The notes under the pieces were generated by a model. It was not told where the DNA came from and did no database searches. It saw only the letters and a list, made by a program, of their open reading frames with translations. This document shows positions 1 through 40,992 of a stretch of 64,000 bases of DNA, one piece after another; position 1 is the stretch's first letter, and each line of letters begins with the position of its first letter. The translations under genes were made by a program, and so were the position numbers. Source of the stretch: Alphaproteobacteria bacterium (lineage in GTDB: Bacteria; Pseudomonadota; Alphaproteobacteria; Bin95); the NCBI GenBank assembly GCA_964291285.2, contig OZ219785.1, positions 896,001 to 960,000 of the forward strand, in the 5' to 3' direction.

Positions 1-526
1 CCGCATCCTCGGCATGTGCTCGCTGCTGCTGATCGCCGGCATCGACACGACCTGGAGCGCGATCTCCTCCTCGCTCTACCATTTTGCGACCCATCCTGAG
101 GACCAGGCGCGGCTTCGCGCGGAGCCCGAGCTGCTGCCGACGGCGGTGGAGGAGCTGCTGCGCTTCTACTCGCCCGTCACCATGGGCCGCATCGTGACCG
201 AGCCGGTCGAGATCGACGGGGCGCGGATGCAGGAGGGCGACAGGGTGCTGCTCAACTTCCCCGGCGCCAACCGCGACCCGGAGGCGTTCGAGCGCGCCGA
301 CGAGGTGGTGCTGGACCGCGCGCGCAACCGCCACATGGCCTTCGGCCTCGGCATCCACCGCTGCGCCGGCTCCAACCTCGCCCGCATGGAAATGCAGGTG
401 GCGCTCCGCACCTGGTTCGACCGCATCGGCGCGTTCGAACTGGAGGACGCCGAGGCGGTCACCTGGGCCGGCGGCCAGGTGCGCGGGCCGAGGAAAGTGC
501 CGGTTCGGTTCGAGGCGACGGGGTAG
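1..526 (+). CDS. Cytochrome P450 (5'-truncated by window edge)
   Basis: I-helix AGIDTT, EELLR (ExxR), heme-ligand motif HMAFGLGIHRCAG. Confidence 0.95.
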   Translation, partial: RILGMCSLLLIAGIDTTWSAISSSLYHFATHPEDQARLRAEPELLPTAVEELLRFYSPVTMGRIVTEPVEIDGARMQEGDRVLLNFPGANRDPEAFERADEVVLDRARNRHMAFGLGIHRCAGSNLARMEMQVALRTWFDRIGAFELEDAEAVTWAGGQVRGPRKVPVRFEATG

Positions 527-544
527 GCGGGCCGCCGCCGGCCC

Positions 545-573
545 TTGCCGCGCGCCGGCCGGGTTCCTATGCT
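545..573 (+). promoter_or_regulatory. Sigma70-like promoter, probably leaderless
   Basis: TTGCCG(545-550)-N17-TATGCT(568-573); ATG at 581 with no SD. Confidence 0.55.
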
Positions 574-580
574 GCGGGGC

Positions 581-1084
581 ATGACCGGGGCCATCGCCTT
601 CGACACCCACCGCTTCGTGAAGCGCCTGACGGAGGGCGGCTTCACCGAGAAGCAGGCCGAGACCCTGGCCGAAGAGCAGGTCGCCCTGCTCAACACCAAC
701 CTGGCGACCAAGGCCGACATCGCAGCGGCGCAGACCGACATCGCGGCAGTCGAGGCCGGGCTGAAGGCCGACCTCGCGGCAGTCGAGGCCGGGCTCAAGG
801 CCGATCTCGCAAATGTCGAGGCCGGGCTGAAGGCCGATCTCGCAAATGTCGAGGCCGGGCTCAAGGCCGATCTCGCGAAGGTCGAGGCCGGGCTCAAGGC
901 CGAGATCGCGAGGGTCGAAGGCGGACTCAAGACCGAGATCGCGAGGGTCGAAGGCGGGCTCAAGGCCGAGATCGCGAGGGTCGAAGGCAGCATCGAGGCT
1001 GTCAAGGCCGACCTTCTGAAATGGATGTTCGGCGCGCTGATCGCCCAGGGCGGGCTGATCGTCGCCCTGGTCAAGCTGCTGTAG
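581..1084 (+). CDS. DUF1640/CCDC90-like coiled-coil membrane-anchored protein
   Basis: N-terminal FDTHRFVKRL...GFTEKQAE head, LATKADI neck, 11-aa repeat stalk, C-terminal LLKWMFG...LVKLL anchor. Confidence 0.85.
   Translation: MTGAIAFDTHRFVKRLTEGGFTEKQAETLAEEQVALLNTNLATKADIAAAQTDIAAVEAGLKADLAAVEAGLKADLANVEAGLKADLANVEAGLKADLAKVEAGLKAEIARVEGGLKTEIARVEGGLKAEIARVEGSIEAVKADLLKWMFGALIAQGGLIVALVKLL
711..990 (+). repeat. 33-bp (11-aa) tandem repeats inside the DUF1640 gene
   Basis: About 8 copies of KA(D/E)(L/I)AxVE(A/G)GL, e.g. gtcgaggccgggct(g/c)aaggccga. Confidence 0.9.
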
Positions 1085-1156
1085 CACCGGTCGGGTTCCG
1101 GGAGGCCGCCGCGCCGGCCCTTGCCGCCTGCCGGCCGGATTCCTATGCTTCGGACT

Positions 1157-1350
1157 ATGACCGGGGCCGATATGGAGGCGCCGCGCGTCGATGTCACGGG
1201 AAACGCGGCCCGGCTCAGGGCCGAGTTTGCCGAGGTCGTGGGGGGATTGGGATCGTGCTCGCAAAGTTCAAGGCGGATTTCCTGAAATGCATGTTCGGCG
1301 CGATGATCGTCCAGACTGTGGCGATCGTCGCCCTGACTAAGCTGCTGTAG
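1157..1350 (+). pseudogene. Degenerate, internally deleted and frameshifted paralogue of the DUF1640 gene
   Basis: Same promoter (TTGCCG 1121-N17-TATGCT 1144) and same start ATGACCGGGGCC; C-terminus KADFLKCMFGAMI...LTKLL lies in another frame. Confidence 0.75.
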
Positions 1351-1378
1351 CGCCGGGCTTGAATTGCTGCGACCAGAG

Positions 1379-1708
1379 ATGGCTGACAGGTTCAAGAGGT
1401 CGGCAGCCGTGCCGTTCAATCACAACATGCTCCTCCGCTTGCCGAGCGTTGAGCATACCGTTTACCTGTTTTGGTCGACATCGAAGACCCGGGCGGTATA
1501 TGTGGGCAAGACGGACCGGCCTATACGCCACCGGATGCGGGAGCACTGGCGAGATAGCAGCAATCCGATACTGAAGACTTGGATCGATTGGGCTGCTGAC
1601 GACCTCCTGATGTGCTATATGGAGGTGCCGTGGCCCGATGTGGTCAAGGTGGAGCGTCGGATGATTCGGGCGCTCGATCCTATAGCAAACGACCAGTACA
1701 AACGCTGA
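1379..1708 (+). CDS. Small GIY-YIG nuclease-family protein
   Basis: TVYLF...VYVGKT..IRHRMREH, VERRMI...P.AN motif pattern. Confidence 0.75.
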   Translation: MADRFKRSAAVPFNHNMLLRLPSVEHTVYLFWSTSKTRAVYVGKTDRPIRHRMREHWRDSSNPILKTWIDWAADDLLMCYMEVPWPDVVKVERRMIRALDPIANDQYKR

Positions 1709-2575
1709 ACTGAGGGAATTGGTATGGCCAGCACACTTCCGGCGATGAAGGGCAGCATGGGTGGGACTGAGTACTATCTGATTTCATTGAAGGCCAGTGA
1801 ACTAGTAAATTTGGTCAAGCTGCCGAAGGATATGCCGGGTTGGGACAACCAAACAATCGAGGAAATTTACCAGCGGAATATCAACGAAACGAGGGTGAGA
1901 AATCAAATCGCTCCCTATTTGGCAAAAAACAAGGATACGCGCTTCTTTGGTGCATTGATTGTAGCCGCCTTTAATTTCGATGAGAATGTATATTTTACTC
2001 CTTTGCGGCAAATCGGCGCCGTTTCGGAAAACCGCTTGAGGCCGGAAGAAAAAGAGGCAGCCGACAAGATAGGTATATTGACGCTTGGAGGAGGAGTGAT
2101 GATGGTGCCATTGGATGGGCAGCATCGTTTGCGAGCGCTTGATTTCGCTATGCGCGGCAAAGACCATGCAAACAAAGATATCCCAGGGATCGATGTAGAC
2201 CCCGATCTGGCCAATGAAGACATTTCGGTTATCCTCGTCCCTTATGAGGCGCAAAAGGCGAGGAGGATATTTACCAGGGTAAACAGATATGCGCGACAGC
2301 CAACAGCCTCTGAAACCTATGTGACCGACGATGAGGATGTGTATGCGGTTTTAGCCCGCCGAGTAGCAAATCAGATTGGCGGGCGACTGGTAAAGTATAC
2401 AAGCCCAACCCTTACCCCTACAGACGAGGAATTTACGACACTTGCGATTTTACGTTCGTGTTGTCAGAACATTGTGAAGGCAAGCTTTCCCGATAAGCTT
2501 GTGGCTGCTGCTGAGGGATTGGATGAAGGGGCCGTCGATGCATGTACAAGGAAGGTGTTAGAAATCTGGAGAAGA

Positions 2576-3360
2576 TTAGGTCCTGTGGACGGATTTGATC
2601 AAGATGAAGGCAGCGGCGAGTGCGACGAAGGAGCTGAAGTTTGTGGCGGTCTTTTCGCAGCGCAGGGCGATGCGTTTGAAGCGTTTGAGCTTGCCGACGG
2701 CCTGTTCGATGCGCGCCCGTCCTCTGTAGAGCGCGCTTGCGAAGCGCTTTGGCCTGTTTTTGATGTTCTTCCGGTAGGGAATGACGGTCAGGGCGCCTCT
2801 TTTCCGGGCGAGTTGGCGGTTTCCGGCGCTGTCATAGCCCTTGTCGGCGACGATGGCGCGGGGCCGGACATCGGGGCCGATGTCCATCAGGGTCTCGAAA
2901 TGCGGACTGTCGGCTGCCTCGCCGCCGGTCAGGTCGAAGGCGATCGGCAGGCCGTCGAAATCGGTCTTCAGGTGGATTTTGGTGCTGAAACCGCCCCGCG
3001 AGCGTCCAAGCGCCTGACCCTGCTGCCCCCTTTTGCGCCGGCCGCCGATACATGCGCGCGGGTCACGGTCGAATCGAACATCTGAACCAGGTGCGCCGTG
3101 CTGCTCAAATCCGCCAGCGTGGCGAAAAAGTCCTCGAACACCCCTGAACGGCTCAGACGGTGAAAACGCCGCCATACCGTATTCCAGTGCCCGAACCGCT
3201 CCGGCAGCGCCCGCCAGGTGATGTTGTGAACCGCAAAGAAGTGCAGCGCCTCCAGAAACAGACGGTCGTCCTTCGCCTTCGCACCCCGCCTCGGAAGGCA
3301 AAGCCGGAAAACCTCCAGCGCAACCTCCCAGTCTCCATTCGTCATCTTCGTCGACATCAA
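2576..3360 (-). CDS. IS5 transposase in two frames (OrfA 2968-3360 and DDE OrfB), probable programmed frameshift
   Basis: WRALPERFGHWNTV (OrfA); GRSRGGFSTKIH, ADKGYDS, IEQAVGKLKRFKRIA (OrfB); slippery AAAAGGGGG at 3034-3026. Confidence 0.9.
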
Positions 3361-3453
3361 CGAAACCCCCGAATCGCCGACGCCTCATGATTCAGACAAA
3401 TCCTCGCACGGGAATCCCTGAACACGCTCCTGAGTCAATACGTCCACAGGGCC
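2579..3453 (-). mobile_element. IS5-family (IS427-like) insertion sequence, copy 1, 875 bp
   Basis: IRs GGTCCTGTGGACG / CGTCCACAGGGCC, TA duplicated at 2577-78 and 3454-55; same sequence as 40118-40992. Confidence 0.95.
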
Positions 3454-3775
3454 TAGTCACGAAGGTGGAGGTCTTTGCAGATTTAACTGCAGACATATCT
3501 GAAGCTGGAGATGGAAAGCGCAAGGATATTAGAAGAATCAATCTGTTGGGTAAGCCTGTGCCGCAGGAATGTCTTGTGTCGGCCTACTTGGCACTGGTAG
3601 ATGATCCGACCAACATGAGCTGGGAAGACGCTTGTCGAGCTCTGAATGCGCTGCCGTGGGAGATTAACGAACGGAATACGGGAGAGATTTGGCAGAATGT
3701 CCTTTGGACAGGGGGGATGGATGGGCGAATTATTACAAATTCGAAAAATCGCTCTATTTCGTCCCGTATGATTAG

Positions 3776-5725
3776 TTATATGGCGGGAGAAATTTTGACC
3801 GAGGAGCAGCAAGACGGATTGTTACAAGAATTCCGCACCTTGTTCCCGGAGGATGTGGCCGCAAGAAAGAGCTTGCCGGAGAAAGTCCAAATAGCAGAAC
3901 CGGAATAGACTAGTACGATTAGTAAGCGGTCACACAGGGCGCGAAAACGCCATAGTTTTGCCGCTGCAAGAGCAAAGGTTTCTGATCGGGCGTCTATATT
4001 GGCAGGGGACCATTCTCGGTATTTGGCCAAGTCTCTGGTTATACGGAATGGGCTATCCTCGAATACCGGTCGCTTGCTTTCGAAGGATGCGTTGAAGCGG
4101 CCACGAGAGTAACTGTCATTGTGACCGAGAAGGGTCAAGTTTCCGAGCCGTGGGATCCAATCACCCAGGTCCGGCCCGATGTCACCGAATTCCTGCCATC
4201 CGGACCAGTGTTGAGCAGATTGGGGCAGCACGTGTTCCACGCTGCATCCAGCGTAGCTGAGTGCAGTGGCGTCGCGTTGCTGTTGTCCGTTCACTCCAAA
4301 CAGCAATCTCTTGGCTCTGCGGCGGTCGGTCAGGCGCGCATTTTTCAGTCGGTCGATGAAGTTTGCATCGGACATGATCTGCGACGAGTCGCAAGCAGAG
4401 AGATCGTCGAGAACGTCTAGGTCCTCGGCGTCTGTGTGCCCGATACCTGCTGCAATTCGCTGGGCACAATTCGCCAAAGCCGGTTCCACGCGGGAAGGCT
4501 CGAATTTGCCTTCGACAAAGGTGGTTCTCATTATGAACGTGGTAAGGTCGGCTATCGCTCGATAGACTGCTATCGCGACGGGGCGCTGAGTGGCGCGTTG
4601 GTGTAAGGCGATGGAGGTGAAGCGTCGAAGAAGAGCGAACAGGAGGGGATAGGTAACGGAGTATCCCCGGAGCTCGTCAAGGAATACGGAGAGATTTCGC
4701 TTATTGCTGGTGGTGCGGGATGCTCTATTGAAGTCCAAAAGGAATTCAGGGTTTGGATTTGTGGAGAATATTGTTCGGAACAATTCGACATTCTTGAGAT
4801 CGGTAAGGTCGTTTACAAGGGCAAGCACATAGTTTTTGGCGTGCTGACCGGTGGTTCGGTTTGAGGACGCATGCAAGATTGCAACGCGAGCGTTTCTGTA
4901 GAATCTGGTTTTCTGTAAATATCCATACCGATTTTGGAGATAGCATCTGAAATAATCTTGAGCGCGTTTGGGACTTCTTAAGGCCGCGAGCGCATTTTCT
5001 ATGTTGTAGTGAACAGATTCATATTGTTGAGTATCGCTGCCTCTGGAAAAATACGAATATATATGATTACGGATCAAATCTATATCTTCGAGAGGTTTAC
5101 CACGAGCATTTAGGGCCTCGAAAACTGCATTGGCGTCTTCGGTGGCAGGTATATAGAGAATTGTTATCTCGACTTTTTGTGTCACGAAGTCGAAAAATGT
5201 TTCGAATTCGCCTTCCTTCAGCGTCAGCAGAAATGAAGTAATGTCAGACCATGCAGACACAAGCTTGCCATTTGTGCCGACCTCATGCCCTTGTATGATT
5301 TGATGAAAGCGGGATCGATCTGAACGAGGGGGCGTAAGCCTAGGGGTTTCATTTTCCAGATTGTCGGAGTCGATTTCACGGTATATCGGCACATCGAATA
5401 AAGTTTTAAGTGAAATATCTTTGCGTTTTCCGTCCAAGTGTGGAGGGGTCTCAAAATGTCTGGCAAAGGCCGCGAAAATAAGCGACAAGGTCATCAACCG
5501 TTGCTGCCCGTCGTTGATTTCCCAATAACCCCCTCGTTGAATGAGCATGATCGAACCGAGAAAATACGATGGGCGGCTTGCGTCATGCGCTTCTTTTATG
5601 TCGGTCAGAAGCTCGTGCACATGCTCTGCGGTCCAGTCGTAGAAGCGTTGATGCCAAGGAACCTGGAAGCGTCCCTTGGCAAGAAGGTCCGGTACGAGAA
5701 GGACCTCGGACGAAATGGAGGTCAT
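3776..5725 (-). CDS. DUF262 + DUF1524 (GmrSD/SspE-like) nuclease
   Basis: FQVPWHQRFYDW, YFLGSI, INDGQQRLMT, VFEALNARGKPL (DUF262); VEHVLPQ...LGNLTLL...FN (HNH-type DUF1524); ATG overlaps the dndC-like stop. Confidence 0.9.
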   Translation of the reverse strand: MTSISSEVLLVPDLLAKGRFQVPWHQRFYDWTAEHVHELLTDIKEAHDASRPSYFLGSIMLIQRGGYWEINDGQQRLMTLSLIFAAFARHFETPPHLDGKRKDISLKTLFDVPIYREIDSDNLENETPRLTPPRSDRSRFHQIIQGHEVGTNGKLVSAWSDITSFLLTLKEGEFETFFDFVTQKVEITILYIPATEDANAVFEALNARGKPLEDIDLIRNHIYSYFSRGSDTQQYESVHYNIENALAALRSPKRAQDYFRCYLQNRYGYLQKTRFYRNARVAILHASSNRTTGQHAKNYVLALVNDLTDLKNVELFRTIFSTNPNPEFLLDFNRASRTTSNKRNLSVFLDELRGYSVTYPLLFALLRRFTSIALHQRATQRPVAIAVYRAIADLTTFIMRTTFVEGKFEPSRVEPALANCAQRIAAGIGHTDAEDLDVLDDLSACDSSQIMSDANFIDRLKNARLTDRRRAKRLLFGVNGQQQRDATALSYAGCSVEHVLPQSAQHWSGWQEFGDIGPDLGDWIPRLGNLTLLGHNDSYSRGRFNASFESKRPVFEDSPFRITRDLAKYREWSPANIDARSETFALAAAKLWRFRALCDRLLIVLVYSGSAIWTFSGKLFLAATSSGNKVRNSCNNPSCCSSVKISPAI

Positions 5726-6888
5726 GCAGGAGCGGCTGCTGCAGTAAGAGCGAGGCGAGCGCGCTCGGCGGCTTCGTCGCGCCACCACACATCCCGGATG
5801 CTCTCGATTTCCGCCGGGAGAATCAGCGTTTCGCCGAGTGTCTCTTGCAAGGCCAGCAATTTGTCGAGGATTGTCTGGCGCACCTCAAGGCGGAACGGCC
5901 CCATCACATAAGAACCGTCCGCGCGGCGGCGGGGGTTGCCGTCGCGCCGCACGGGCAGACGGTTGCCGTCGTCCTCGCGGAGTTCCACGAGCCACTCGCG
6001 GAAATCGAGCAGGGATTCCATCGTCTCCGTCTCGGCATGACCGGAGTCTATCAGGCCTTGCAGACTGCGGTCCTTCTTGACCACGGTGCAGGTCCAGCAG
6101 CCGAAGCGGGGCGAGGAGGTGCCGCAGGATGGCGCATCCTCCTTCGTCATCACCAGGGGGCACTCGCCGCCGCCGGCCGAGCGGTAGAGCGCGATCAGCC
6201 GGCGGTGGCTGCCGCCCCAGGGCGGCCGGCGCTGCATGAGCACCATCCACACGTCCTCGTCGTCGAGATCGGCGAGCGGCGCGAACATCCGGCATTCCTC
6301 GATGGAGCCGTGCGGATTGAGCGCCGTCGCGGTGACCTCCCGGCGCTCCATGCTGCGCTGCCGGTTCTGCGATTCGCTGCGTCGCGTGCCGATCAGCAGC
6401 ACGGCCCCGCCGTGCCGGGCGACCACGCCGCGGATGAGGCGGTCGGTCGGCAGGATTTTCATGCGGTCGGTGCACCACCGGAAATTGCGGGTCGGCGGGA
6501 TATAGCCCCGCCCGATGACACTGACCCAGAATGTCTGGTCTATGGCCGGCGTCGTGATGCGGACTGTGAGCGGTATGTTGTCGGCTTCGGCGGCGGCGCG
6601 GATCGCGTCGGCGGAGTCCCGGAGATGCCGGATCACCAGGGGCGATTCGACCCGCGTATCGTTGCCCACCACGATGATGTCGCGCCGGGCCTGCTCCGGG
6701 GGAAGGGCCGCGACCGTCTCCCAGACCAGTTGCAACAGCAGGGTCGAATCCTTGCCGCCCGAATAAGCGACCAGCCATGGATGCGAATGTTCCCGGCAAT
6801 ATTCTTCCCGAAGCACGTCCCGGATGCGGTCCAGCCGCTCCGGCAAGCTGGCAAGGTCGTCCCGGAGTGCCGGGGAGGCCGCGCTCAT
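5722..6888 (-). CDS. dndC: DndC-like PAPS-reductase-family sulfurtransferase (DNA phosphorothioation)
   Basis: WLVAYSGGKDS PP-loop, NDTRVE, RWCTDRMKI, GTRRSES, ECP...SCG...RFGCWTCTVV Fe-S cysteines, GPF; ATGA overlap with the upstream desulfurase. Confidence 0.88.
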   Translation of the reverse strand: MSAASPALRDDLASLPERLDRIRDVLREEYCREHSHPWLVAYSGGKDSTLLLQLVWETVAALPPEQARRDIIVVGNDTRVESPLVIRHLRDSADAIRAAAEADNIPLTVRITTPAIDQTFWVSVIGRGYIPPTRNFRWCTDRMKILPTDRLIRGVVARHGGAVLLIGTRRSESQNRQRSMERREVTATALNPHGSIEECRMFAPLADLDDEDVWMVLMQRRPPWGGSHRRLIALYRSAGGGECPLVMTKEDAPSCGTSSPRFGCWTCTVVKKDRSLQGLIDSGHAETETMESLLDFREWLVELREDDGNRLPVRRDGNPRRRADGSYVMGPFRLEVRQTILDKLLALQETLGETLILPAEIESIRDVWWRDEAAERARLALTAAAAPA

Positions 6889-8069
6889 GCGGCGATGCTC
6901 CGCAGCACGGACACGGCTTCCGCAACCCGGCCGGCGGCAAGGTCGATCTCCGCCCCGGTCGTATAGCGTCCGAAGCTGAACCGCACCGAGGACAGCGCGG
7001 CCGTGGGGCTCATTCCCATGCCCAGCAGCACATGGGACGGCTCGACCGCTTCCGAAGTGCAGGCGGAGCCGGTCGCCAGGGCAACGCCGTCCAAAGCCAG
7101 CAGCAGCGACTCCGCCGCCACGCCGTCGAAACACATATTGAGGATGCCGGGCGCCCGGTCGACCGCGCCTGCATTGACCGCTGCGCCGGCAATCCCTTCC
7201 AGCTTCCGCAGCAGGCGCGCATCCAGCGCGGCGATCCGGCGCGAGTCGCATTCGAGGCGTTCGCGCACAAGGCGCGCGGCGGCGCCCATGCCCACGATCT
7301 GGTGCGTCGGCAGCGTGCCCGGCCGGAAGCCCCTCTCCTGCCCGCCGCCATGCGTCTGCGGGACGAGGGCCGGCAGCAGCCCGCGCCGGACATAGAGCGC
7401 GCCCACGCCCTTGGGGCCGTACATCTTGTGGCCGCTCAGCGAAAGCATGTCGCAACCGAGCCGGGACACGTCGAGCGGGAGGCGGGCGGCGCTCTGCACG
7501 GCGTCCACATGGAGCATCGCACCCGCCTTGCACACGACGCGAGAGACGGCCGGAATATCCGTGACTGCCCCGGTCTCGTTGTTGACATGCATGAGCGAGA
7601 CGAGGGCGGTGTCCGCGCGCAACACGGAAGCGACGGCATCCGGTCCGATCCGGCCTTCGGCGTCCGGCTGGACGGCGGTGACTTCGAAACCCGCCCCGGA
7701 GAGCCAGTGCGCGGTGTCGAGGACCGCCTTGTGCTCCAGTGCCGAGACCACGAGGTGGCGGCCCCGCGCCTGCCGGGAGAGCAGCAGGCCCTTGAGGGCG
7801 AGATTGATGGATTCGGTCGCCCCGGAGGTCCACAGGATTTCCCCGGCCCCGGCCCCGACCAGCGCGGCGACTTCCCGGCGAGCCGTCTCGACGGCTTCCA
7901 GTGCCGCATGGCCGAAACTGTGGGTGATCGAGGACGGGTTCCCGAATATGCCGTCCGCCGTGAGGCAGTCGGCCATCGCTTCCGCGACTTCCGGCGCAAC
8001 CGGCGTCGTTGCGGCGTAGTCCAGATAGACTCCGCCTGCCGGCTGTCCCCCGGTTTTCCGGCGCCCCAT
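6885..8069 (-). CDS. Cysteine desulfurase (IscS/DndA family)
   Basis: YLDYAATTP, SGATES, EHKAV, SGHKMYGPKG (PLP lysine), ATGSACTS (catalytic Cys). Confidence 0.95.
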   Translation of the reverse strand: MGRRKTGGQPAGGVYLDYAATTPVAPEVAEAMADCLTADGIFGNPSSITHSFGHAALEAVETARREVAALVGAGAGEILWTSGATESINLALKGLLLSRQARGRHLVVSALEHKAVLDTAHWLSGAGFEVTAVQPDAEGRIGPDAVASVLRADTALVSLMHVNNETGAVTDIPAVSRVVCKAGAMLHVDAVQSAARLPLDVSRLGCDMLSLSGHKMYGPKGVGALYVRRGLLPALVPQTHGGGQERGFRPGTLPTHQIVGMGAAARLVRERLECDSRRIAALDARLLRKLEGIAGAAVNAGAVDRAPGILNMCFDGVAAESLLLALDGVALATGSACTSEAVEPSHVLLGMGMSPTAALSSVRFSFGRYTTGAEIDLAAGRVAEAVSVLRSIAA

Positions 8070-8229
8070 GCTCTGTGGCCTTTCCGCGTCGGGATGTCCG
8101 CCACCGTTCCTGACGCTCTCCCGCCATTGTGGTCCGGCCCGGAATCGCCGGTCAAGCCCCCCCGACCCGCTTGACAATGTTCCCTCTATGTGCTTTTCCC
8201 GCGCCACCCAGGCAAGGAGGACGGCTACT

Positions 8230-8607
8230 ATGCCGCGTGCGTTTTCTCTCGACCTGCGCAAGCGGGTGGTCGAGGCGGTGGAGGCGGGGATGAGCCAGCG
8301 GGCGGCGGCGCGGCGGTTCGCCGTCGGCAAGTCCACCGTTGCGGAATGGCACAAGCTCCGGCGCGAGCGCGGCCACCTGCGCCCCGGAAAGCCCGGCGGC
8401 CCCCGTCCCTCGCCGGTCGAGGACGAGCGCTGCTTCCTGCTCGGCCTGCTGGAGGGCGACCCGAACCTCTCCATCGCGGAGTTGCGCGCGGCGCTGGCGG
8501 AACGGGGCGTGGTCGTGAGCATGACCGCCGTGCAGAAATTCCTCAAGCGCCACGGCGTCAAGCGCTGGCCGGGGCGCCGCCCGCTCAAGCCGCGGCGGCG
8601 GCGCTGA
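8230..8607 (+). CDS. Stand-alone IS630-transposase-type HTH protein (no DDE domain)
   Basis: MPRAFSLDLRKRVV...SQRAAARRFAV; second HTH PNLSIAELR...VS..AV.KFLKRHG; SD AGGAGG at 8215-8220. Confidence 0.8.
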   Translation: MPRAFSLDLRKRVVEAVEAGMSQRAAARRFAVGKSTVAEWHKLRRERGHLRPGKPGGPRPSPVEDERCFLLGLLEGDPNLSIAELRAALAERGVVVSMTAVQKFLKRHGVKRWPGRRPLKPRRRR

Positions 8608-8865
8608 ACCGGCCGGGCGGCCGGACTACAGGGGATCATTGCCAGGCCGGTTCCGGACGGCGGGCAAACGGAGGACGCACGTCTCCTGTCTGGCGGCCGA
8701 CACCGGCCTTCACCCTTCCGGTTCCTTCGAGAACGGCGCCCCGCCGCCGTCCTATGCCCAAGTCATGCCCCCGCTCTCCCGTTGCGGCAGGCCCCGTATA
8801 TGGGGCGGACGCGCGGGAATTCAAGCATCTGGAAGGAAATAAATCCAGATTCGTGCCCGCCCGCC

Positions 8866-9570
8866 TCAGCCGAGCGCCGTCAGCGCCGCTTCGCGGGTTT
8901 CGAAATAGTCGATGATCGACGTGAAGCCGCCCATGTCGATGACCGCAAGGCATTCCGGCGAGAGGGCGGCGAGGACCAGCCGCCCGCCCTTCTCGTTGCA
9001 CAGCTTGGCCGAGACCAGCAGGGCGCGCAGCCCGCTGCTGTCCACATAGCCCATGCCCCCGCAGTCCAGCACGACGCGGGTGCTGCCGCGCCCGACGGCG
9101 GCGAAGATCCGCTCCGTCAGTATCGGCGCGTTCCTGCCCTCCAGCCGCCCGTCCAGCGAGAGCAGCACCGCCCGCTCCAATTGGCGTTCCGCAACGGCGA
9201 ACCCGCGCCCCTCTTCCGCCTCCCGGGGGCTTTCGGCGGCGGGCGCGGCAAGCGCGTCCTCGACGGTCTCGGGGCAGTCGAGGACCATCAGCAGGCCGGT
9301 CGCGTCCAGGACCGCCCGGCATTCGGGCCGGAGCGCCGCGACGGCGAAATCGCAGCCGGTCTGGAGGCATGCCCTGGCGCCGAGCAGCAGGGCGCGCAAG
9401 CCGGCGCTGCTGACATAGGCGACCTCGCGGCAGTCCACCACCAGGCGGCCGGGGCCGGTCTTCGCGACGGCGGCGAGCCTGGCCTCCAGGTCGGGAGCCC
9501 CGATCGCGTCCAGACGCCCGGCCGGGGAGACGACAACCGCCGGGCCCTCGCTCCGCTCCTCGATTTTCAT
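8866..9570 (-). CDS. Tandem-STAS anti-sigma factor antagonist
   Basis: Two GRL(D/E)...V(V/L)DC..V/M.YV(S/D)S.GLRALL repeats. Confidence 0.9.
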   Translation of the reverse strand: MKIEERSEGPAVVVSPAGRLDAIGAPDLEARLAAVAKTGPGRLVVDCREVAYVSSAGLRALLLGARACLQTGCDFAVAALRPECRAVLDATGLLMVLDCPETVEDALAAPAAESPREAEEGRGFAVAERQLERAVLLSLDGRLEGRNAPILTERIFAAVGRGSTRVVLDCGGMGYVDSSGLRALLVSAKLCNEKGGRLVLAALSPECLAVIDMGGFTSIIDYFETREAALTALG

Positions 9571-9795
9571 CGCGCCGCGTCCGTCATCGCCGGCCCTTCG
9601 ATGCCTCCGGGATATGCACGGACTATACAGGGATATGCCGGAATTTACAGGGGTTCCGCTGCCGGGGAGCGGTTGCGGAAACGGAATTGCGGGTCCCTTT
9701 TCTAGCCTGCCGCCTTCGATGGCAGGCGTGCATCTCGACCCGGGCGCGCCGCTGTTGTAGCAATGCGGGATGCAGGCGACGGGAGAGCCGACGAC

Positions 9796-10410
9796 ATGGC
9801 CCCAGATACTGGCGACAGCGCCCCCCTGATCCGACCGAGCCGCGCACAGGCCGAAGAGGCGGTGCGCATCCTGCTGCGCTGGGCAGGCGACGACCCCTCG
9901 CGCGAGGGCCTGGTCGGCACGCCGGACCGGGTGCTCCGGGCCTATGGCGAATTCTTCGCGGGCTACAGCGAAGACCCGGTCGCCGTGCTGGAGCGCACCT
10001 TCGAGGAAACCGCCGACTATGACGAGATGATCGTGGTGCGCGACATCCGCCTGGAAAGCCATTGCGAGCACCATATCGTGCCGATCATCGGCAAGGCGCA
10101 TGTCGGCTACCTGCCGGCCGGGCGTGTGGTCGGCATCTCCAAGCTCGCGCGCGTGGTGGACATCTTCGCCAAGCGCCTGCAGATCCAGGAACGGCTCACC
10201 ACCGAGATCGCCGACGCCATCGACCGTGTGCTGAGGCCGCGCGGCGTGGCGGTGGTCGTCGAGGCCACGCATATGTGCATGTCGACGCGCGGCATCCACA
10301 AGACCGCGTCCTCCACCGTGACCAGCCGGATGCTGGGCAGCTTCCGCTCCGACCCGACGACGCGGCGCGAGTTCCTGACCATGATCGGCAGAGGTGGCGA
10401 TTCCGTCTGA
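9796..10410 (+). CDS. folE: GTP cyclohydrolase I
   Basis: [28 protein letters not shown]. Confidence 0.96.
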
Positions 10411-10454
10411 GCCGCGCTAACCTTCCCGGCGACAAACTGCCGGAGGGGAACGCG

Positions 10455-10979
10455 ATGACCTACACGCTTGACCAATTCGCCGCCGAATGCCGCGAGGCGC
10501 TGGCCGCCGACGGCGGACGGGCCGGCAGGGAGGGCGTGCTCGCCTGCGTGAAGAAGGCGCTGGCGAGCCCGGAGTTCCTGGAGACGCATCTCGGGCCGGA
10601 CGCGACCGCCGAGCGCGAGATCATCTACGAGGACCCGGATTACGGCTTCTGTATCTGCGCCCATGTCTACCAGGGGGCGCGGACGGGCGGGCCGCACGAC
10701 CACGGGCCGACATGGGCGATCTACGGCCAGGCCTTCGGCGAGACCGAGATGACCGACTGGCGCATCGTCCGGCCGCCGGAAGGGGAGAAGCCGGGCCGGG
10801 TCGCGCTCTCGCGCGTCTACACGATGAAGCCGGGCGACGCGCATCTCTACGATGTGGGCGACGTGCACGCGCCGCGGCGCATGTCGGCGACGCGCCTCAT
10901 CCGCATCGAGGGCTGCGACACCATGAAGGTGAAGCGCACGCCGCTGATGGCGGTGGAAGCAGCGGACGCCGCGCAATGA
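10455..10979 (+). CDS. Cysteine-dioxygenase-like cupin protein
   Basis: PHDHGPTWAIYG...GDVH metal-binding His pattern; SD GGAGGG. Confidence 0.75.
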   Translation: MTYTLDQFAAECREALAADGGRAGREGVLACVKKALASPEFLETHLGPDATAEREIIYEDPDYGFCICAHVYQGARTGGPHDHGPTWAIYGQAFGETEMTDWRIVRPPEGEKPGRVALSRVYTMKPGDAHLYDVGDVHAPRRMSATRLIRIEGCDTMKVKRTPLMAVEAADAAQ

Positions 10980-11863
10980 GTGTGCAGATCCGGCGCCTGA
11001 CGCCGGCCTTTGCGGGCGAGGTCTCCGGCGTCGACACCACCCGGCCGCTGCCGGCGGGCGTGGCGGCGGCGCTCGACGCGGGCATGGCGGAGCACGGCGT
11101 GCTGGTGTTCCCCGGCCAGGCGCTGACGGACGAGCAGCAGGCGGCGTTCTCGCAGAATTTCGGCCGGCTGGAGATGCCGTCCGCGGTGTCCAACATCACC
11201 AAGGAGCATGAGCGCCGGCTCGGCCCCGCCATGGCGGACGTGTCCAACCTGACGAAGGAGCACCGGCCCTTCGACCGCGAGGACCGGCGGCGCATGTTCA
11301 ATCTCGGCAACCGCCTCTGGCACTCGGATTCCTCCTTCCGGGCGGTGCCGGCGAAGCTCAGCCTTCTTTCCGGGCGTATCCTGCCGTCGAGCGGCGGCAA
11401 CACCGAGTTCGCCGACATGGCGGGGGCTTACGATGCGCTCGACGCGGCGATGAAGGCGCGGGTCGAGGACCTTGTCTGCGAGCACTCGCTGCTCTATTCG
11501 CGCGGCCGGCTGGGCTTCGAGGGCCTGACCGAGGAGGAGAAGGCCAATTTCCGCCCCGTGCGCCAGGCGCTGGTGCGCGTCCACCCGCAGAACGGGCGGA
11601 AGTCGCTGTACCTCTCCGCCCACGCCGGCAGGATCGTCGGCTGGCCGGTCCCCGAAGGCCGCCTCCTGCTGGAAGAGCTCACCGAGCACGCGACGCAGAG
11701 GCAGTTCGTCTATGCGCATGAATGGCGCGTGAACGACCTCGTGATCTGGGATAACCGGCGCACCATGCACCGCGCGCGCCCCTTCGACGATGTGAACGAG
11801 GTCCGCGACATGCGCCGCACCACCGTGGCCGGCGAGGAAATGACGGCCGCCCAGGCGGCCTGA
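10976..11863 (+). CDS. TauD/TfdA family Fe(II)/2-oxoglutarate dioxygenase
   Basis: WHSDSSF, GNTEFAD, WDNRRTMHR, RDMRRTT. Confidence 0.93.
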   Translation: MSVQIRRLTPAFAGEVSGVDTTRPLPAGVAAALDAGMAEHGVLVFPGQALTDEQQAAFSQNFGRLEMPSAVSNITKEHERRLGPAMADVSNLTKEHRPFDREDRRRMFNLGNRLWHSDSSFRAVPAKLSLLSGRILPSSGGNTEFADMAGAYDALDAAMKARVEDLVCEHSLLYSRGRLGFEGLTEEEKANFRPVRQALVRVHPQNGRKSLYLSAHAGRIVGWPVPEGRLLLEELTEHATQRQFVYAHEWRVNDLVIWDNRRTMHRARPFDDVNEVRDMRRTTVAGEEMTAAQAA

Positions 11864-11868
11864 GGACC

Positions 11869-13287
11869 GTGCCGGACAGCGGCGGCCCGGCCCCCAACCC
11901 GGCGGAACGGCTGGCGGCCTTTGCTGCGGCGTTGCGCGCGGAGGATGTGCCGGCGGCGGTCCGGGAGCGGGCACGGCATCTGATACTCGATGCGCTCGGC
12001 GTGGCCGCGGCCTCCAGCCGGCAGGAGTTCGCGCGCGTCATGCTGGAGGGCTTCCGGGCGACCGCCGGCGGGGGGGGGTCCGGCGTGGTGGCGATGGGCG
12101 CGCGGCTCTCGCTCCGCGATGCGGCCGCGCTCAATGCCGCGCTCATCCACGGCCTCGATTTCGACGACACCCATCCGGGCGCGGTGGTGCATTGCACGGC
12201 CGTTTCTCTGCCCGCCGCGCTGGCGCTGGGGGAAGAGCGCGACGCGGCCGGCGCGGAAATCCTCACCGCCTATATCGCCGCGATGGAATGCGCCGCGCGG
12301 ATCGGCCTTGCCGCCGATTACGGCTTCCACCGGCGCGGCTTCCACGCCACCGGGATCGCGGGACACTTTTCCTCCGCGCTCGCCGCCGGGCGGCTCATGG
12401 GCCTCGATGCGGCGGCGCTCGCCTCGGCGCAGGGCGTGTGCGTCTCGACGGCGGCGGCAAGCCGCGAGTTCTGGTCGGACGGCGCCTGGAACAAGCGCCT
12501 CCACCCCGGCTGGGCGGCGGAGGCCGGCATTACCGCGGCGGGCCTTGCCGGCGCCGGTTTCAAGGGCTGCGAGCGCCCCTATGACGGACGCTTCGGCCTC
12601 TTCCGGATGCTGATGGGCGCCGACGCGGACGGCGTCGATTACGCGCTTCTGGCCGGCGGGCTGGGAGAGCGCTGGGAGCTGCTCGAATCGGCCGTCAAGC
12701 CCTTCCCGACCTGCCATTACACCCATGCGATCATCGACAGCGCGATTGCGCTCCGCCGGGATCGCGGCCTCGGGCTCGATGACATCGCCCGCATTACGGT
12801 GCTGGTGCATGAGGACCTGATCGGAGCGCTGATGGAGCCGGAGGCGCTGAAACGCAGGCCGCCGGACGACTATGCGGCCCGCTTCAGCGCCCCCTGGGCG
12901 GCGGCCTGCGGGCTGGCGCTCGGAAGGCTCGGGCTCCGGGAACTGGAGCCGGAGGCGCTGCAAGACCCGCAAGTGCTGGCGCTGGCGGCGCGTGTCGAGT
13001 GCCGGCCCGATCCGGACTCGCTCTTCCCGCGCTGTTTCTCGGCAGGCGTCGAGGTCGAGACCCGGTCGGGCGCGCGCTTCAGGCACCATGAGCCGGTCAA
13101 TCGCGGCGCCGGCGACCGGGCGCTCGCCAATGCCGAGATCGTGGAGAAGTTCCACGCCAACGCCGCTCCGGCGCTGGGCGAAGCGCGCGCCGAAGCCATG
13201 GCCGCCCATGTGCTGGACATGGAGAAGCTGACGGGAAGGGAGTTGATGAGGGGGCTGATACCGGCGGCGCCGGGTAGCGGCTTATGA
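11869..13287 (+). CDS. MmgE/PrpD family protein
   Basis: HGLDFDDTH, GFHATG, KRLHPG, KPFPTCHYTH. Confidence 0.9.
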   Translation: MPDSGGPAPNPAERLAAFAAALRAEDVPAAVRERARHLILDALGVAAASSRQEFARVMLEGFRATAGGGGSGVVAMGARLSLRDAAALNAALIHGLDFDDTHPGAVVHCTAVSLPAALALGEERDAAGAEILTAYIAAMECAARIGLAADYGFHRRGFHATGIAGHFSSALAAGRLMGLDAAALASAQGVCVSTAAASREFWSDGAWNKRLHPGWAAEAGITAAGLAGAGFKGCERPYDGRFGLFRMLMGADADGVDYALLAGGLGERWELLESAVKPFPTCHYTHAIIDSAIALRRDRGLGLDDIARITVLVHEDLIGALMEPEALKRRPPDDYAARFSAPWAAACGLALGRLGLRELEPEALQDPQVLALAARVECRPDPDSLFPRCFSAGVEVETRSGARFRHHEPVNRGAGDRALANAEIVEKFHANAAPALGEARAEAMAAHVLDMEKLTGRELMRGLIPAAPGSGL

Positions 13288-40117: not shown

Positions 40118-40992
40118 GGTCCTGTGGACGGATTTGATCAAGATGAAGGCAGCGGCGAGTGCGACGAAGGAGCTGAAGTTTGTGGCGGTCTTTTCGCAGC
40201 GCAGGGCGATGCGTTTGAAGCGTTTGAGCTTGCCGACGGCCTGTTCGATGCGCGCCCGTCCTCTGTAGAGCGCGCTTGCGAAGCGCTTTGGCCTGTTTTT
40301 GATGTTCTTCCGGTAGGGAATGACGGTCAGGGCGCCTCTTTTCCGGGCGAGTTGGCGGTTTCCGGCGCTGTCATAGCCCTTGTCGGCGACGATGGCGCGG
40401 GGCCGGACATCGGGGCCGATGTCCATCAGGGTCTCGAAATGCGGACTGTCGGCTGCCTCGCCGCCGGTCAGGTCGAAGGCGATCGGCAGGCCGTCGAAAT
40501 CGGTCTTCAGGTGGATTTTGGTGCTGAAACCGCCCCGCGAGCGTCCAAGCGCCTGACCCTGCTGCCCCCTTTTGCGCCGGCCGCCGATACATGCGCGCGG
40601 GTCACGGTCGAATCGAACATCTGAACCAGGTGCGCCGTGCTGCTCAAATCCGCCAGCGTGGCGAAAAAGTCCTCGAACACCCCTGAACGGCTCAGACGGT
40701 GAAAACGCCGCCATACCGTATTCCAGTGCCCGAACCGCTCCGGCAGCGCCCGCCAGGTGATGTTGTGAACCGCAAAGAAGTGCAGCGCCTCCAGAAACAG
40801 ACGGTCGTCCTTCGCCTTCGCACCCCGCCTCGGAAGGCAAAGCCGGAAAACCTCCAGCGCAACCTCCCAGTCTCCATTCGTCATCTTCGTCGACATCAAC
40901 GAAACCCCCGAATCGCCGACGCCTCATGATTCAGACAAATCCTCGCACGGGAATCCCTGAACACGCTCCTGAGTCAATACGTCCACAGGGCC
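40118..40992 (-). mobile_element. IS5-family element, copy 2, 875 bp
   Basis: Same IRs and ORFs as 2579-3453; TA duplicated at 40116-17 and 40993-94. Confidence 0.95.

Follow-up and report, generated by a model that had tools for sequence, protein, structure and literature searches.

A candidate DndD/E-independent phosphorothioation-type module with a DndI-like nuclease and an insertion-disrupted GIY-YIG/DGQHR accessory in an alphaproteobacterial genome

In the present study, we analysed a 64-kb stretch of DNA (hereafter the window; G000:C1:896001-960000) from an alphaproteobacterial genome of 6.1 Mb and approximately 70% G+C. At one end of it, genes for a cysteine desulfurase, a short DndC-type sulfurtransferase and a DUF262/DUF1524 nuclease of the GmrSD/DndI type face a GIY-YIG/DGQHR gene pair (Table 1). 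The results suggested that this locus is probably a copy of a horizontally mobile phosphorothioation-type modification-restriction module that is independent of DndD and DndE. Judged from the genes alone, it would most likely represent an undescribed DndD/E-independent phosphorothioation-restriction subtype. The gene identities, the motifs, the recurrence, the clade structure, the absence of DndD/E in the carriers, the portability of the gene pair and the polymorphism of an insertion sequence (IS) were observed directly and are described below.

The three genes of the putative writer-nuclease operon lie on the minus strand and are joined by ATGA start/stop overlaps at 6885-6888 (desulfurase/DndC) and 5722-5725 (DndC/nuclease). 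This arrangement had been described in an earlier, sequence-only reading of the window and was confirmed; the identities given there to the three products (a desulfurase, a DndC of 388 amino acids (aa) and a DUF262/DUF1524 protein) were likewise borne out by family matches. The junction was a recurrent feature: of 24 loci inspected by eye, 19 show [A/G]TGA where DndC stops, and an in-frame 4-base overlap was confirmed by script in 10 of the 24. The desulfurase matched Aminotran_5 (PF00266) at 278 bits and the PADLOC models SspA and DndA at 468.1 and 454.6 bits, respectively. It scored under the NCBIfam equivalog cut-offs for IscS and DndA (376.7 against 480 bits for DndA), which gives a class-level assignment only; at that level, the cysteine desulfurase of a Dnd modification system was present. 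Its plausible start is the ATG at 8069 and not 8607. The plus-strand stretch from 8068 to 8607 is an IS630-type helix-turn-helix fragment that does not belong to the system.

The DndC protein matched TIGR03183 at 334.1 bits (cut-off 290.4), spanning model positions 7-364 of 447, and with PADLOC it scored 373 bits as DndC and 24 bits as SspD. A DndC-type PP-loop/Fe-S sulfurtransferase, as in Dnd systems, was thereby identified. The SGGKDS motif (residues 43-48) and six cysteines (C139, C199, C243, C255, C264 and C267) were invariant among 30 clade members (alignment A5). A predicted structural model had a mean predicted local distance difference test (pLDDT) value of 71.4 and a predicted template-modelling (pTM) score of 0.69, with low confidence in the Cys-rich Fe-S loops. 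Its fold resembled [4Fe-4S] PP-loop thiolases (NcsA, TtuA) and also LarE and APS reductase; these were matches to generic PP-loop sulfur transferases only (NcsA 6scy, E 4.4e-5, TMq 0.31). The DndC sequence had no match in the PDB, the A1 profile gave only noise there, and no PDB entry named Tdp was among the sequence or fold matches. The possibility that this DndC had been truncated by the insertion of a low-GC island was considered and rejected, because orthologues conserve this 388-aa length in full. The GC step between IscS-DndC and the nuclease side was also seen in two other carriers (G011 and G060). The IscS and DndC genes of this copy look intact from their sequences.

The nuclease matched GmrSD_N (PF03235) at 101.7 bits and GmrSD_C (PF07510) at 63.8 bits, and its top PADLOC models were HEC-06 (208 bits) and 'Orf5' (169 bits over the full length). 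The SspE models covered only residues 17-92, about 75 N-terminal residues, with 49 bits against a 766-position profile, and the full-length SspE architecture was absent. The nearest solved relative was DndI (PDB 9JFL, E 8e-10), with which the nuclease shares an N-terminal DUF262 domain with DGQQR and a C-terminal DUF1524 His-Me domain. D72-G-Q-Q-R76, E497 and N529 were invariant, and H498 and N545 were at least 90% conserved, in an alignment of 30 members (A3). The sequence-only reading had correctly seen Dnd-type writer genes coupled directly to a DUF262/DUF1524 nuclease, but its description of the nuclease as an SspE-type reader has to give way to a DndI-type assignment. A 'hybrid Dnd/Ssp' reading is also unnecessary, because a DndI-type DUF262/DUF1524 effector is already known with Dnd writers in the accessible text of PMC11662687.

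The nuclease open reading frame (ORF) ends in a strain-specific tail of about 50 codons, which reaches the antisense of the DGQHR 3' end. In a contig of sequencing run X2, one extra base was found behind position 3947, with which the nuclease would stop about 7 codons further on and measure roughly 600 aa, as is usual in the family (587-621 matched residues). The conserved nuclease domains finish ahead of the altered tail (Pfam to residue 584; W592 conserved). When a complex of DndC and residues 1-600 of the nuclease was predicted, a median score of 0.59 was obtained, against 0.00 for the best of three controls; the runs shared at least 93% of contacts, with a partner pLDDT of at least 81. Among solved complexes, 58 of 80 passed the mark applied, and among mismatched pairs 2 of 110 did so; scores of up to 0.60 were held by only 7 of those 80 solved complexes and by both mismatches that passed, counts that are only approximate here because our own alignments were used as input. 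These results tentatively suggested a predicted contact between DndC and the nuclease.

No match to DndD, DndE, SspB or SspC was obtained inside the window, in agreement with the sequence-only reading. In the same genome, a second, complete Dnd-type system was found in a lower-GC island on contig C3 (Table 1), whose ATPase scored 194.7 bits with TIGR03185 and 690 bits with the PADLOC model PbeC. The C3 system includes a DndC of its own that shares only 51% identity with the window protein; thus the system is separate and not the missing half of the window locus. Its ATPase was the sole DndD match of the genome, and DndE, too, was found on C3 only. In all ten other carrier genomes searched (G005, G011, G060 and G061-G067), nothing above 26 bits was found with the DndD model TIGR03185, and matches of up to 26 bits, which also occurred in 10 of 14 control genomes, represent generic ATPase noise. 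One of these carriers, G011, is a single 4.6-Mb contig. The DndE model TIGR03184 had no match in four of four carriers, with the C3 locus of our own genome as positive control. With PF08870, no DndE match was found in five carriers, a result of little weight because this model matched nothing anywhere, controls included. SspB and SspC were not matched in our own genome with one PADLOC sub-model each (PDLC02769 and PDLC02780), and these negatives are weak because no control genome was matched either. The sequence-only reading had proposed a genome-wide search, in which dndD/E elsewhere and a locus that was a one-off would have spoken against the idea. The genes were indeed found on C3, but in a separate system, and the locus was not a one-off.

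Of 16 further genomes of the genus, two, G005 and G011, contain full-length orthologues of the window DndC (89-97% identical), and in both of them IscS-DndC-GmrSD faces GIY-YIG-DGQHR, with DGQHR intact. In G060, from another family of the class, all five genes are co-directional, with 27-49% identity. The same gene order thus recurs in other genomes, which makes the arrangement more than chance. Subsequently, species-representative genomes were scanned with the DndC alignment, and the ORFs of the best 80 of at least 586 matches were profile-searched. In the 34 closest loci (L017-L050), DndC was 58-89% identical to the window protein. GmrSD stood immediately after DndC in 31 of these, so that the neighbourhood survey suggested in the sequence-only reading gave a clear recurrence, and neither DndD nor DndE::HerA was found within 10 kb in any of the 34. 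IscS adjoined in 24. In the other three loci, DndC was followed by an S-adenosylmethionine-dependent methyltransferase-like::HNH_4 fusion of 588 aa (L022:11240-13006), by an HNH_4 protein of 377 aa (L050:11134-12267) or by the contig edge (L033). The next 45 loci (L052-L096) carried DndD and/or DndE::HerA in 42 cases, with the order DndC-DndD-DndE::HerA recurring in 42 of the 45, and the other three contigs ended at most 330 bases after DndC. One locus, L051, was a 1.8-kb contig.

A maximum-likelihood tree of DndC (84 rows, quick search) separated the two contexts. One clade of 38 rows comprised 34 GmrSD-linked sequences and 4 without a call, and the other, of 46 rows, comprised 43 DndD-linked sequences and 3 without a call; the support by the SH-like approximate likelihood ratio test (SH-aLRT) was 100 on both sides of the split. 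Within the GmrSD clade, Pseudomonadota, Acidobacteriota, Chloroflexota, Nitrospirota, Nitrospinota, Gemmatimonadota, Latescibacterota, Thermodesulfobacteriota and Binatota were intermixed, which indicates that the module has spread horizontally. Many record titles of the carriers named sponge-associated candidate taxa, and a sponge-metagenome run (X4) contained a 3.7-kb contig approximately 91% identical over GmrSD-DndC. Genes of the module were broken by an in-frame stop or frameshift in several metagenome-assembled genomes (MAGs), namely at L014:12700-12702 (G011), in GmrSD of L018, L028 and L048, and in GIY-YIG of L038. These may be cases of real decay or long-read assembly errors.

The GIY-YIG gene of the window matched PF01541 at 23.1 bits (cut-off 22.6) and has all three residues (Y41, R52 and E92) that are invariant in the family alignment A4. 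The adjoining DGQHR gene matched PF14072 at 94.6 bits and TIGR03187 at 87.5 bits (cut-off 58.85), and at 55.4 bits it fell far under the cut-off of 328 of the DndB equivalog TIGR03233. An intact DGQHR protein had no match in the PDB at E up to 0.1. The two genes do converge on the operon, as the sequence-only reading had stated, but the DGQHR gene is not intact, being split by an IS5-family element whose transposase frames scored 138.9 and 80.8 bits with NF033580. The element is flanked by a TA target duplication (2577-78 and 3454-55). When compared with 19 intact relatives (alignment A2), the two halves of DGQHR abut at columns 308/309 with no residue lost. In runs X2 and X3, which come from the same organism and study as run X1, one contig each joined 2576 to 3454 and skipped 877 bases. 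This is exactly the IS plus one TA; thus these contigs represent the uninterrupted DGQHR allele. Their depths (294.9 and 155.1) were comparable to those of the flanks. The contigs of X1 break off at the two ends of the IS; as the assembly may have been built from this run, X1 gives no independent support. The IS insertion in DGQHR is therefore recent or polymorphic. In the contig data of run X3, depth gaps were also seen over 3610-4302. A search for sequencing runs containing the locus gave none of RNA.

Counting the one in DGQHR, the genome has 17 full-length copies of the same IS5-family element with 99-100% identity, and 14 of these stand at 100%. Genome-wide, 37 matches were obtained, the others being truncated copies and solo 110-bp ends, on all five contigs. 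A second copy lies within the window at about 40118-40992. The 875-bp element is in expansion in this genome. An independent disruption of DGQHR was observed in a Nitrospirales MAG (L046:13433-15989), where an insert of about 2.5 kb after the first few codons carries an IS1595-type transposase and a family-2 glycosyltransferase.

The gene pair differed from the operon in its relationships. With the same-genus genome G005, the window shared 91% identity in IscS, 96% in DndC and 90% in GmrSD residues 1-570, and GIY-YIG and DGQHR were just 33-48% identical. The closest sampled relative of the DGQHR 5' part was found in a gammaproteobacterial MAG (L019, 72%), and the DNA similarity to G005 and G011 breaks off at window positions 3976-4002, which fall within the 3' end of the nuclease gene. 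By these comparisons, the GIY-YIG/DGQHR cassette of the window is a swapped allele. Among the 34 closest DndC loci, GmrSD was followed by GIY-YIG and DGQHR in 17. Another 13 had an alternative cassette consisting of an SNF2 helicase, a ParB_N protein, a ParB-HTH protein and a 358-aa protein; this last gene (L020:15870-16943) had no Pfam or PADLOC match. L042, a long locus, had neither cassette.

We further scanned metagenomes with the DGQHR alignment, and 80 loci were returned (L097-L176). A GIY-YIG ORF stood immediately upstream of DGQHR in 66 of them, and in 12 of the 14 others the contig leaves fewer than 420 bases upstream. Only two of the 80 (L097 and L145) contained DndC-GmrSD. The commonest neighbour clusters of the pair were present in 34, 23, 13 and 10 loci; on L100, the first three scored as SspD (447 bits), SspC (1267 bits) and SspB (355 bits) with PADLOC, and the fourth fits the IscS profile. 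The metagenomic pair was usually found after sspA-sspB-sspC-sspD, for example at L100:1177-9266. Often beside the Ssp-linked pair was a 390-aa protein without a family match, or a weakly methyltransferase-like protein of about 630 aa, which suggests a possible undescribed Ssp-linked accessory or effector set. On L173, DndC-DndD-DndE::HerA was followed by a GIY-YIG-like ORF (27 bits with a 21-sequence profile) and a DndB-like gene. The 162-aa protein of the C3 system was tried as a clear GIY-YIG protein and rejected, with no BLASTP match and 11 bits with the 21-sequence profile; it is a weak lead only. Collectively, the GIY-YIG/DGQHR pair is a portable accessory that accompanies at least two types of writer, and probably a third. 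As these writers are complete without it, the pair probably does not replace DndD/E, and its portability fits a role downstream of the mark, as a regulator or a split sensor-nuclease effector.

Based on these genes, the following mechanism is proposed. An IscS-type desulfurase would load sulfur on the short DndC, a PP-loop, Fe-S enzyme, and DndC would write it into the DNA backbone without an SMC-like ATPase and DndE. The effector would be a DndI-like GmrSD protein produced by translational coupling, with the DUF262 NTPase as sensor and the His-Me domain as nuclease, sparing marked self DNA and nicking unmarked invader DNA. The GIY-YIG/DGQHR pair would be a separate plug-in accessory that serves as a second effector, in the form of a split 'ParB-like sensor plus nuclease', or else as a DndB-like regulator whose partner is a nuclease. 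We infer from the gene set that phosphorothioate is made, as well as the proteins that make it, the sites at which it is made and the restriction of phages. In this copy, the accessory is freshly inactivated by the IS and the C-terminal tail of the nuclease is altered. A single-gene writer has a precedent, since tdpC alone was sufficient for phosphorothioate synthesis according to the available part of PMC12914056. A bolder version of this mechanism is possible, although we hold it to be unlikely: a self-sufficient, sequence-selective DndC, fed by IscS and docked on the DndI-like nuclease, would form a two- or three-protein writer-reader that does the job of DndACDE plus DndFGH/DndI, the DUF262 NTPase would take the energy-coupling role of DndD, and GIY-YIG/DGQHR would be a universal split phosphorothioate-sensing nuclease for Dnd-type, Ssp-type and the present writers.

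Several points weigh against the proposed DndD/E-independent module. The current consensus, as given in the accessible part of PMC12707154, is that a writer requires a PAPS-reductase-type enzyme together with an ATPase and a component that recognises DNA, and the last two have no recognisable counterpart at this locus. The phosphorothioate-sensing Tyr25 of DndI is not retained; it aligns with His25 of the nuclease, within a W24-H25 pair conserved in at least 90% of 30 family members. The DndC-nuclease complex prediction was only a weak pass. The absences of DndD/E were obtained with one model per family, and the DndD/DndE::HerA system on C3 makes cross-talk possible in this genome. As for the recurrence, the 80 loci are just the top of at least 586 matches, the context groups were defined by the same neighbours that were then counted, and many carriers are MAGs from similar habitats, kin and not independent. 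With its two lesions, the local system could have lost part or all of its activity, and for every member of the module the phosphorothioate chemistry and the phage defence are predicted.

Alternatively, the variable cassette might supply the missing writer functions, with GIY-YIG (nicking) and DGQHR (a ParB-like NTPase/DNA binder), or in other loci the SNF2 and ParB-type proteins, standing in for DndD/E. DndC would then write only together with the cassette. Such a role would agree with the presence of one or the other cassette in 17 and 13 of the 34 close loci, with the combination of a ParB-superfamily protein and an enzyme (GIY-YIG nuclease or SNF2 helicase) in both, and with the swapped allele (33-48% against 90-96% for the other three genes in G005), as expected of a specificity module. 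However, the pair stands beside complete SspA-B-C-D operons, with an SspD-type neighbour in 34 of the 80 metagenome loci, and a distant pair follows DndC-DndD-DndE::HerA on L173 and at our own C3 locus. In at least one long locus, L042, nothing but IscS-DndC-GmrSD is present, and the sequenced strain tolerates a DGQHR gene knocked out by the IS beside a nuclease with intact conserved domains. We therefore regard this explanation as improbable.

Very improbable, in our view, is that the DndC-like enzyme makes no backbone phosphorothioate on self DNA and instead performs another thio-modification, or a 'mark-and-kill' reaction in which the invader is marked and then cut by the GmrSD-type enzyme. 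GmrSD-family enzymes are typically modification-dependent (as stated in the accessible part of PMC4619093), the equivalent of DndI Tyr25 is not conserved, and no recognisable counterpart of the targeting proteins of known writers is present, all of which would suit such a scheme. On the other hand, DndC scored above the curated equivalog cut-off and keeps all the conserved cysteines and PP-loop residues, and the nuclease slot can hold unrelated HNH proteins, in keeping with a generic logic of writer plus restriction partner; moreover, DndI, the nearest solved relative, acts on unmodified DNA in the available text of PMC11662687. The sequence-only reading had offered a remnant complemented in trans as its alternative, and C3 does encode a DndD/PbeC-like ATPase and a DndE::HerA fusion that could serve the window DndC. 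Yet the C3 system's own DndC is only 51% identical and falls in the other tree clade, two same-genus carriers (G005 and G011) and eight others have no DndD, and the conserved 388-aa length shows no truncation. With ten of ten other carriers lacking DndD and a wide recurrence, trans-complementation fails at the family level, and this already disfavoured explanation has next to no probability.

The setting of the locus was examined in same-genus genomes. In G007 (C3, 4066002-4066014) and G014 (C65, 28232-28242), the matches to window 1-516 and 8855-13000 are only 11 and 9 bases apart, respectively. As the flanks nearly abut in these empty sites, the stretch between them (517-8854) is an accessory island at a variable site. 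In G011, the module is present at the same site as in the window. In G006, the matching flanks are separated by about 6.5 kb, and the only part of this insert that was identified matches the window from 8167 onward. Together with the empty sites, this insert makes the site look like a variable integration spot. At the left island edge (545-1350), two adjoining CCDC90-like (DUF1640-type) coiled-coil genes with internal repeats were observed, whose relatives are scattered through the genomes of the genus.

Table 1. Features of the window locus and of the second Dnd-type system in the same genome.
Feature	Position	Strand	Basis and remarks
Accessory island	517..8854	none	defined against empty sites in two same-genus genomes (G007, G014)
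Small GIY-YIG nuclease gene, 109 aa	1379..1708	+	PF01541; alternative start TTG 1364
DGQHR (DndB-like) gene, 5' part, 285 codons	1724..2578	+	PF14072, TIGR03187; cut by IS
IS5-family element, 875 bp, inverted repeats	2579..3453	-	transposase in two frames (2968-3360, 2576-3388)
DGQHR gene, 3' part, 150 codons + stop	3456..3908	+	resumes alignment A2 at column 309
GmrSD/DndI-like nuclease, DUF262 NTPase + DUF1524 His-Me nuclease, 649-aa ORF	3776..5725	-	PF03235, PF07510
Short DndC, PP-loop/Fe-S sulfurtransferase, 388 aa	5722..6888	-	TIGR03183
IscS/DndA/SspA-type cysteine desulfurase, 394 aa	6885..8069	-	PF00266, PADLOC SspA/DndA
IS630-type transposase N-terminal (helix-turn-helix) fragment	8068..8607	+	NF033545 55.2 bits, model positions 2-116 of 299
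C3 system genes, in order	L005:6255-14345		short DndC 415 aa; DndD/PbeC-like ATPase 691 aa; DndE::HerA/DUF87 fusion 510 aa; 162-aa protein; DndB-like 425 aa

The established phosphorothioate systems are Dnd, Ssp, Tdp and BREX type 4, as listed in the available part of PMC12914056. The survey in that paper, as far as its accessible text goes, required a P-loop NTPase next to DndC/SspD, so the present module would be excluded from it; a DUF262 neighbour appeared there in one small cluster. In the accessible part of PMC12839542, DndC and GmrSD are mentioned only in the BREX context. Genes weakly similar to dndA, dndB and dndC have been reported in sponge-associated Thaumarchaeota, the 'dndB-like' ones with DUF262/DUF1524 (accessible text of PMC6790972), and they are possibly the same trio. 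No description of a DndD/E-less DndC-GmrSD system was found in a literature search made mostly without subscription papers and supplements. Reviews call for three activities, of which the module has only the first, the sulfur transferase; its presence across many phyla is therefore informative. It would provide a simple test bed for a minimal writer and for the source of site selection, and it would carry the single-enzyme precedent of Tdp over to mesophiles. The loci also show an 'effector slot' directly after dndC. The GIY-YIG/DGQHR accessory shared by Dnd-like and Ssp systems suggests that phosphorothioate-linked immunity has an exchangeable layer that has gone unrecognised, and the runs with disrupted and uninterrupted DGQHR form a near-isogenic natural pair of the system with and without the accessory.

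Among known systems, IscS-DndBCDE-DndI of Salmonella enterica Cerro 87 (PMC11662687, available part; 9JFL) is like the module in its desulfurase, DndC and DGQHR/DndB-type protein, and in a single-chain effector joining a DUF262 (DGQQR NTPase) to a DUF1524 (His-Me) nuclease. DndI (DUF262/DUF1524) works with IscS-DndBCDE, senses phosphorothioate and is toxic without the mark, according to the same accessible text. The module differs in lacking DndD and DndE, in its short DndC, in the joining of the nuclease gene to the writer operon by a 4-base overlap, in a conserved Trp-His where DndI has Tyr25, and in a DGQHR protein that has a GIY-YIG partner and scores 55 against the DndB cut-off of 328. 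SspABCD-SspE likewise combines a desulfurase, a PAPS-reductase-type enzyme and a DUF262/DUF1524 effector, and the GIY-YIG/DGQHR pair adjoins SspABCD in metagenomes. In contrast, the enzyme of the module is DndC-type (373 against 24 bits for SspD), the SspE models match residues 17-92 only, and the SspB nickase and SspC ATPase were not matched in the genome with one sub-model each. TdpAB is a helicase-nuclease pair of thermophiles, whereas the partner in the module is of the GmrSD/DndI type and its hosts are mesophilic and largely sponge-associated, with Tdp compared by description only. The likeness to TdpABC is that the single enzyme TdpC suffices for synthesis (accessible part of PMC12914056), as the module would require of DndC. 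Finally, the DndC-DndD-DndE::HerA systems (C3 and L052-L096) have an SMC-like ATPase and DndE, belong to the sister DndC clade and have no GmrSD adjoining DndC, but they share the same short DndC architecture at 47-55% identity and are sometimes followed by a distant GIY-YIG-like and DndB-like pair.

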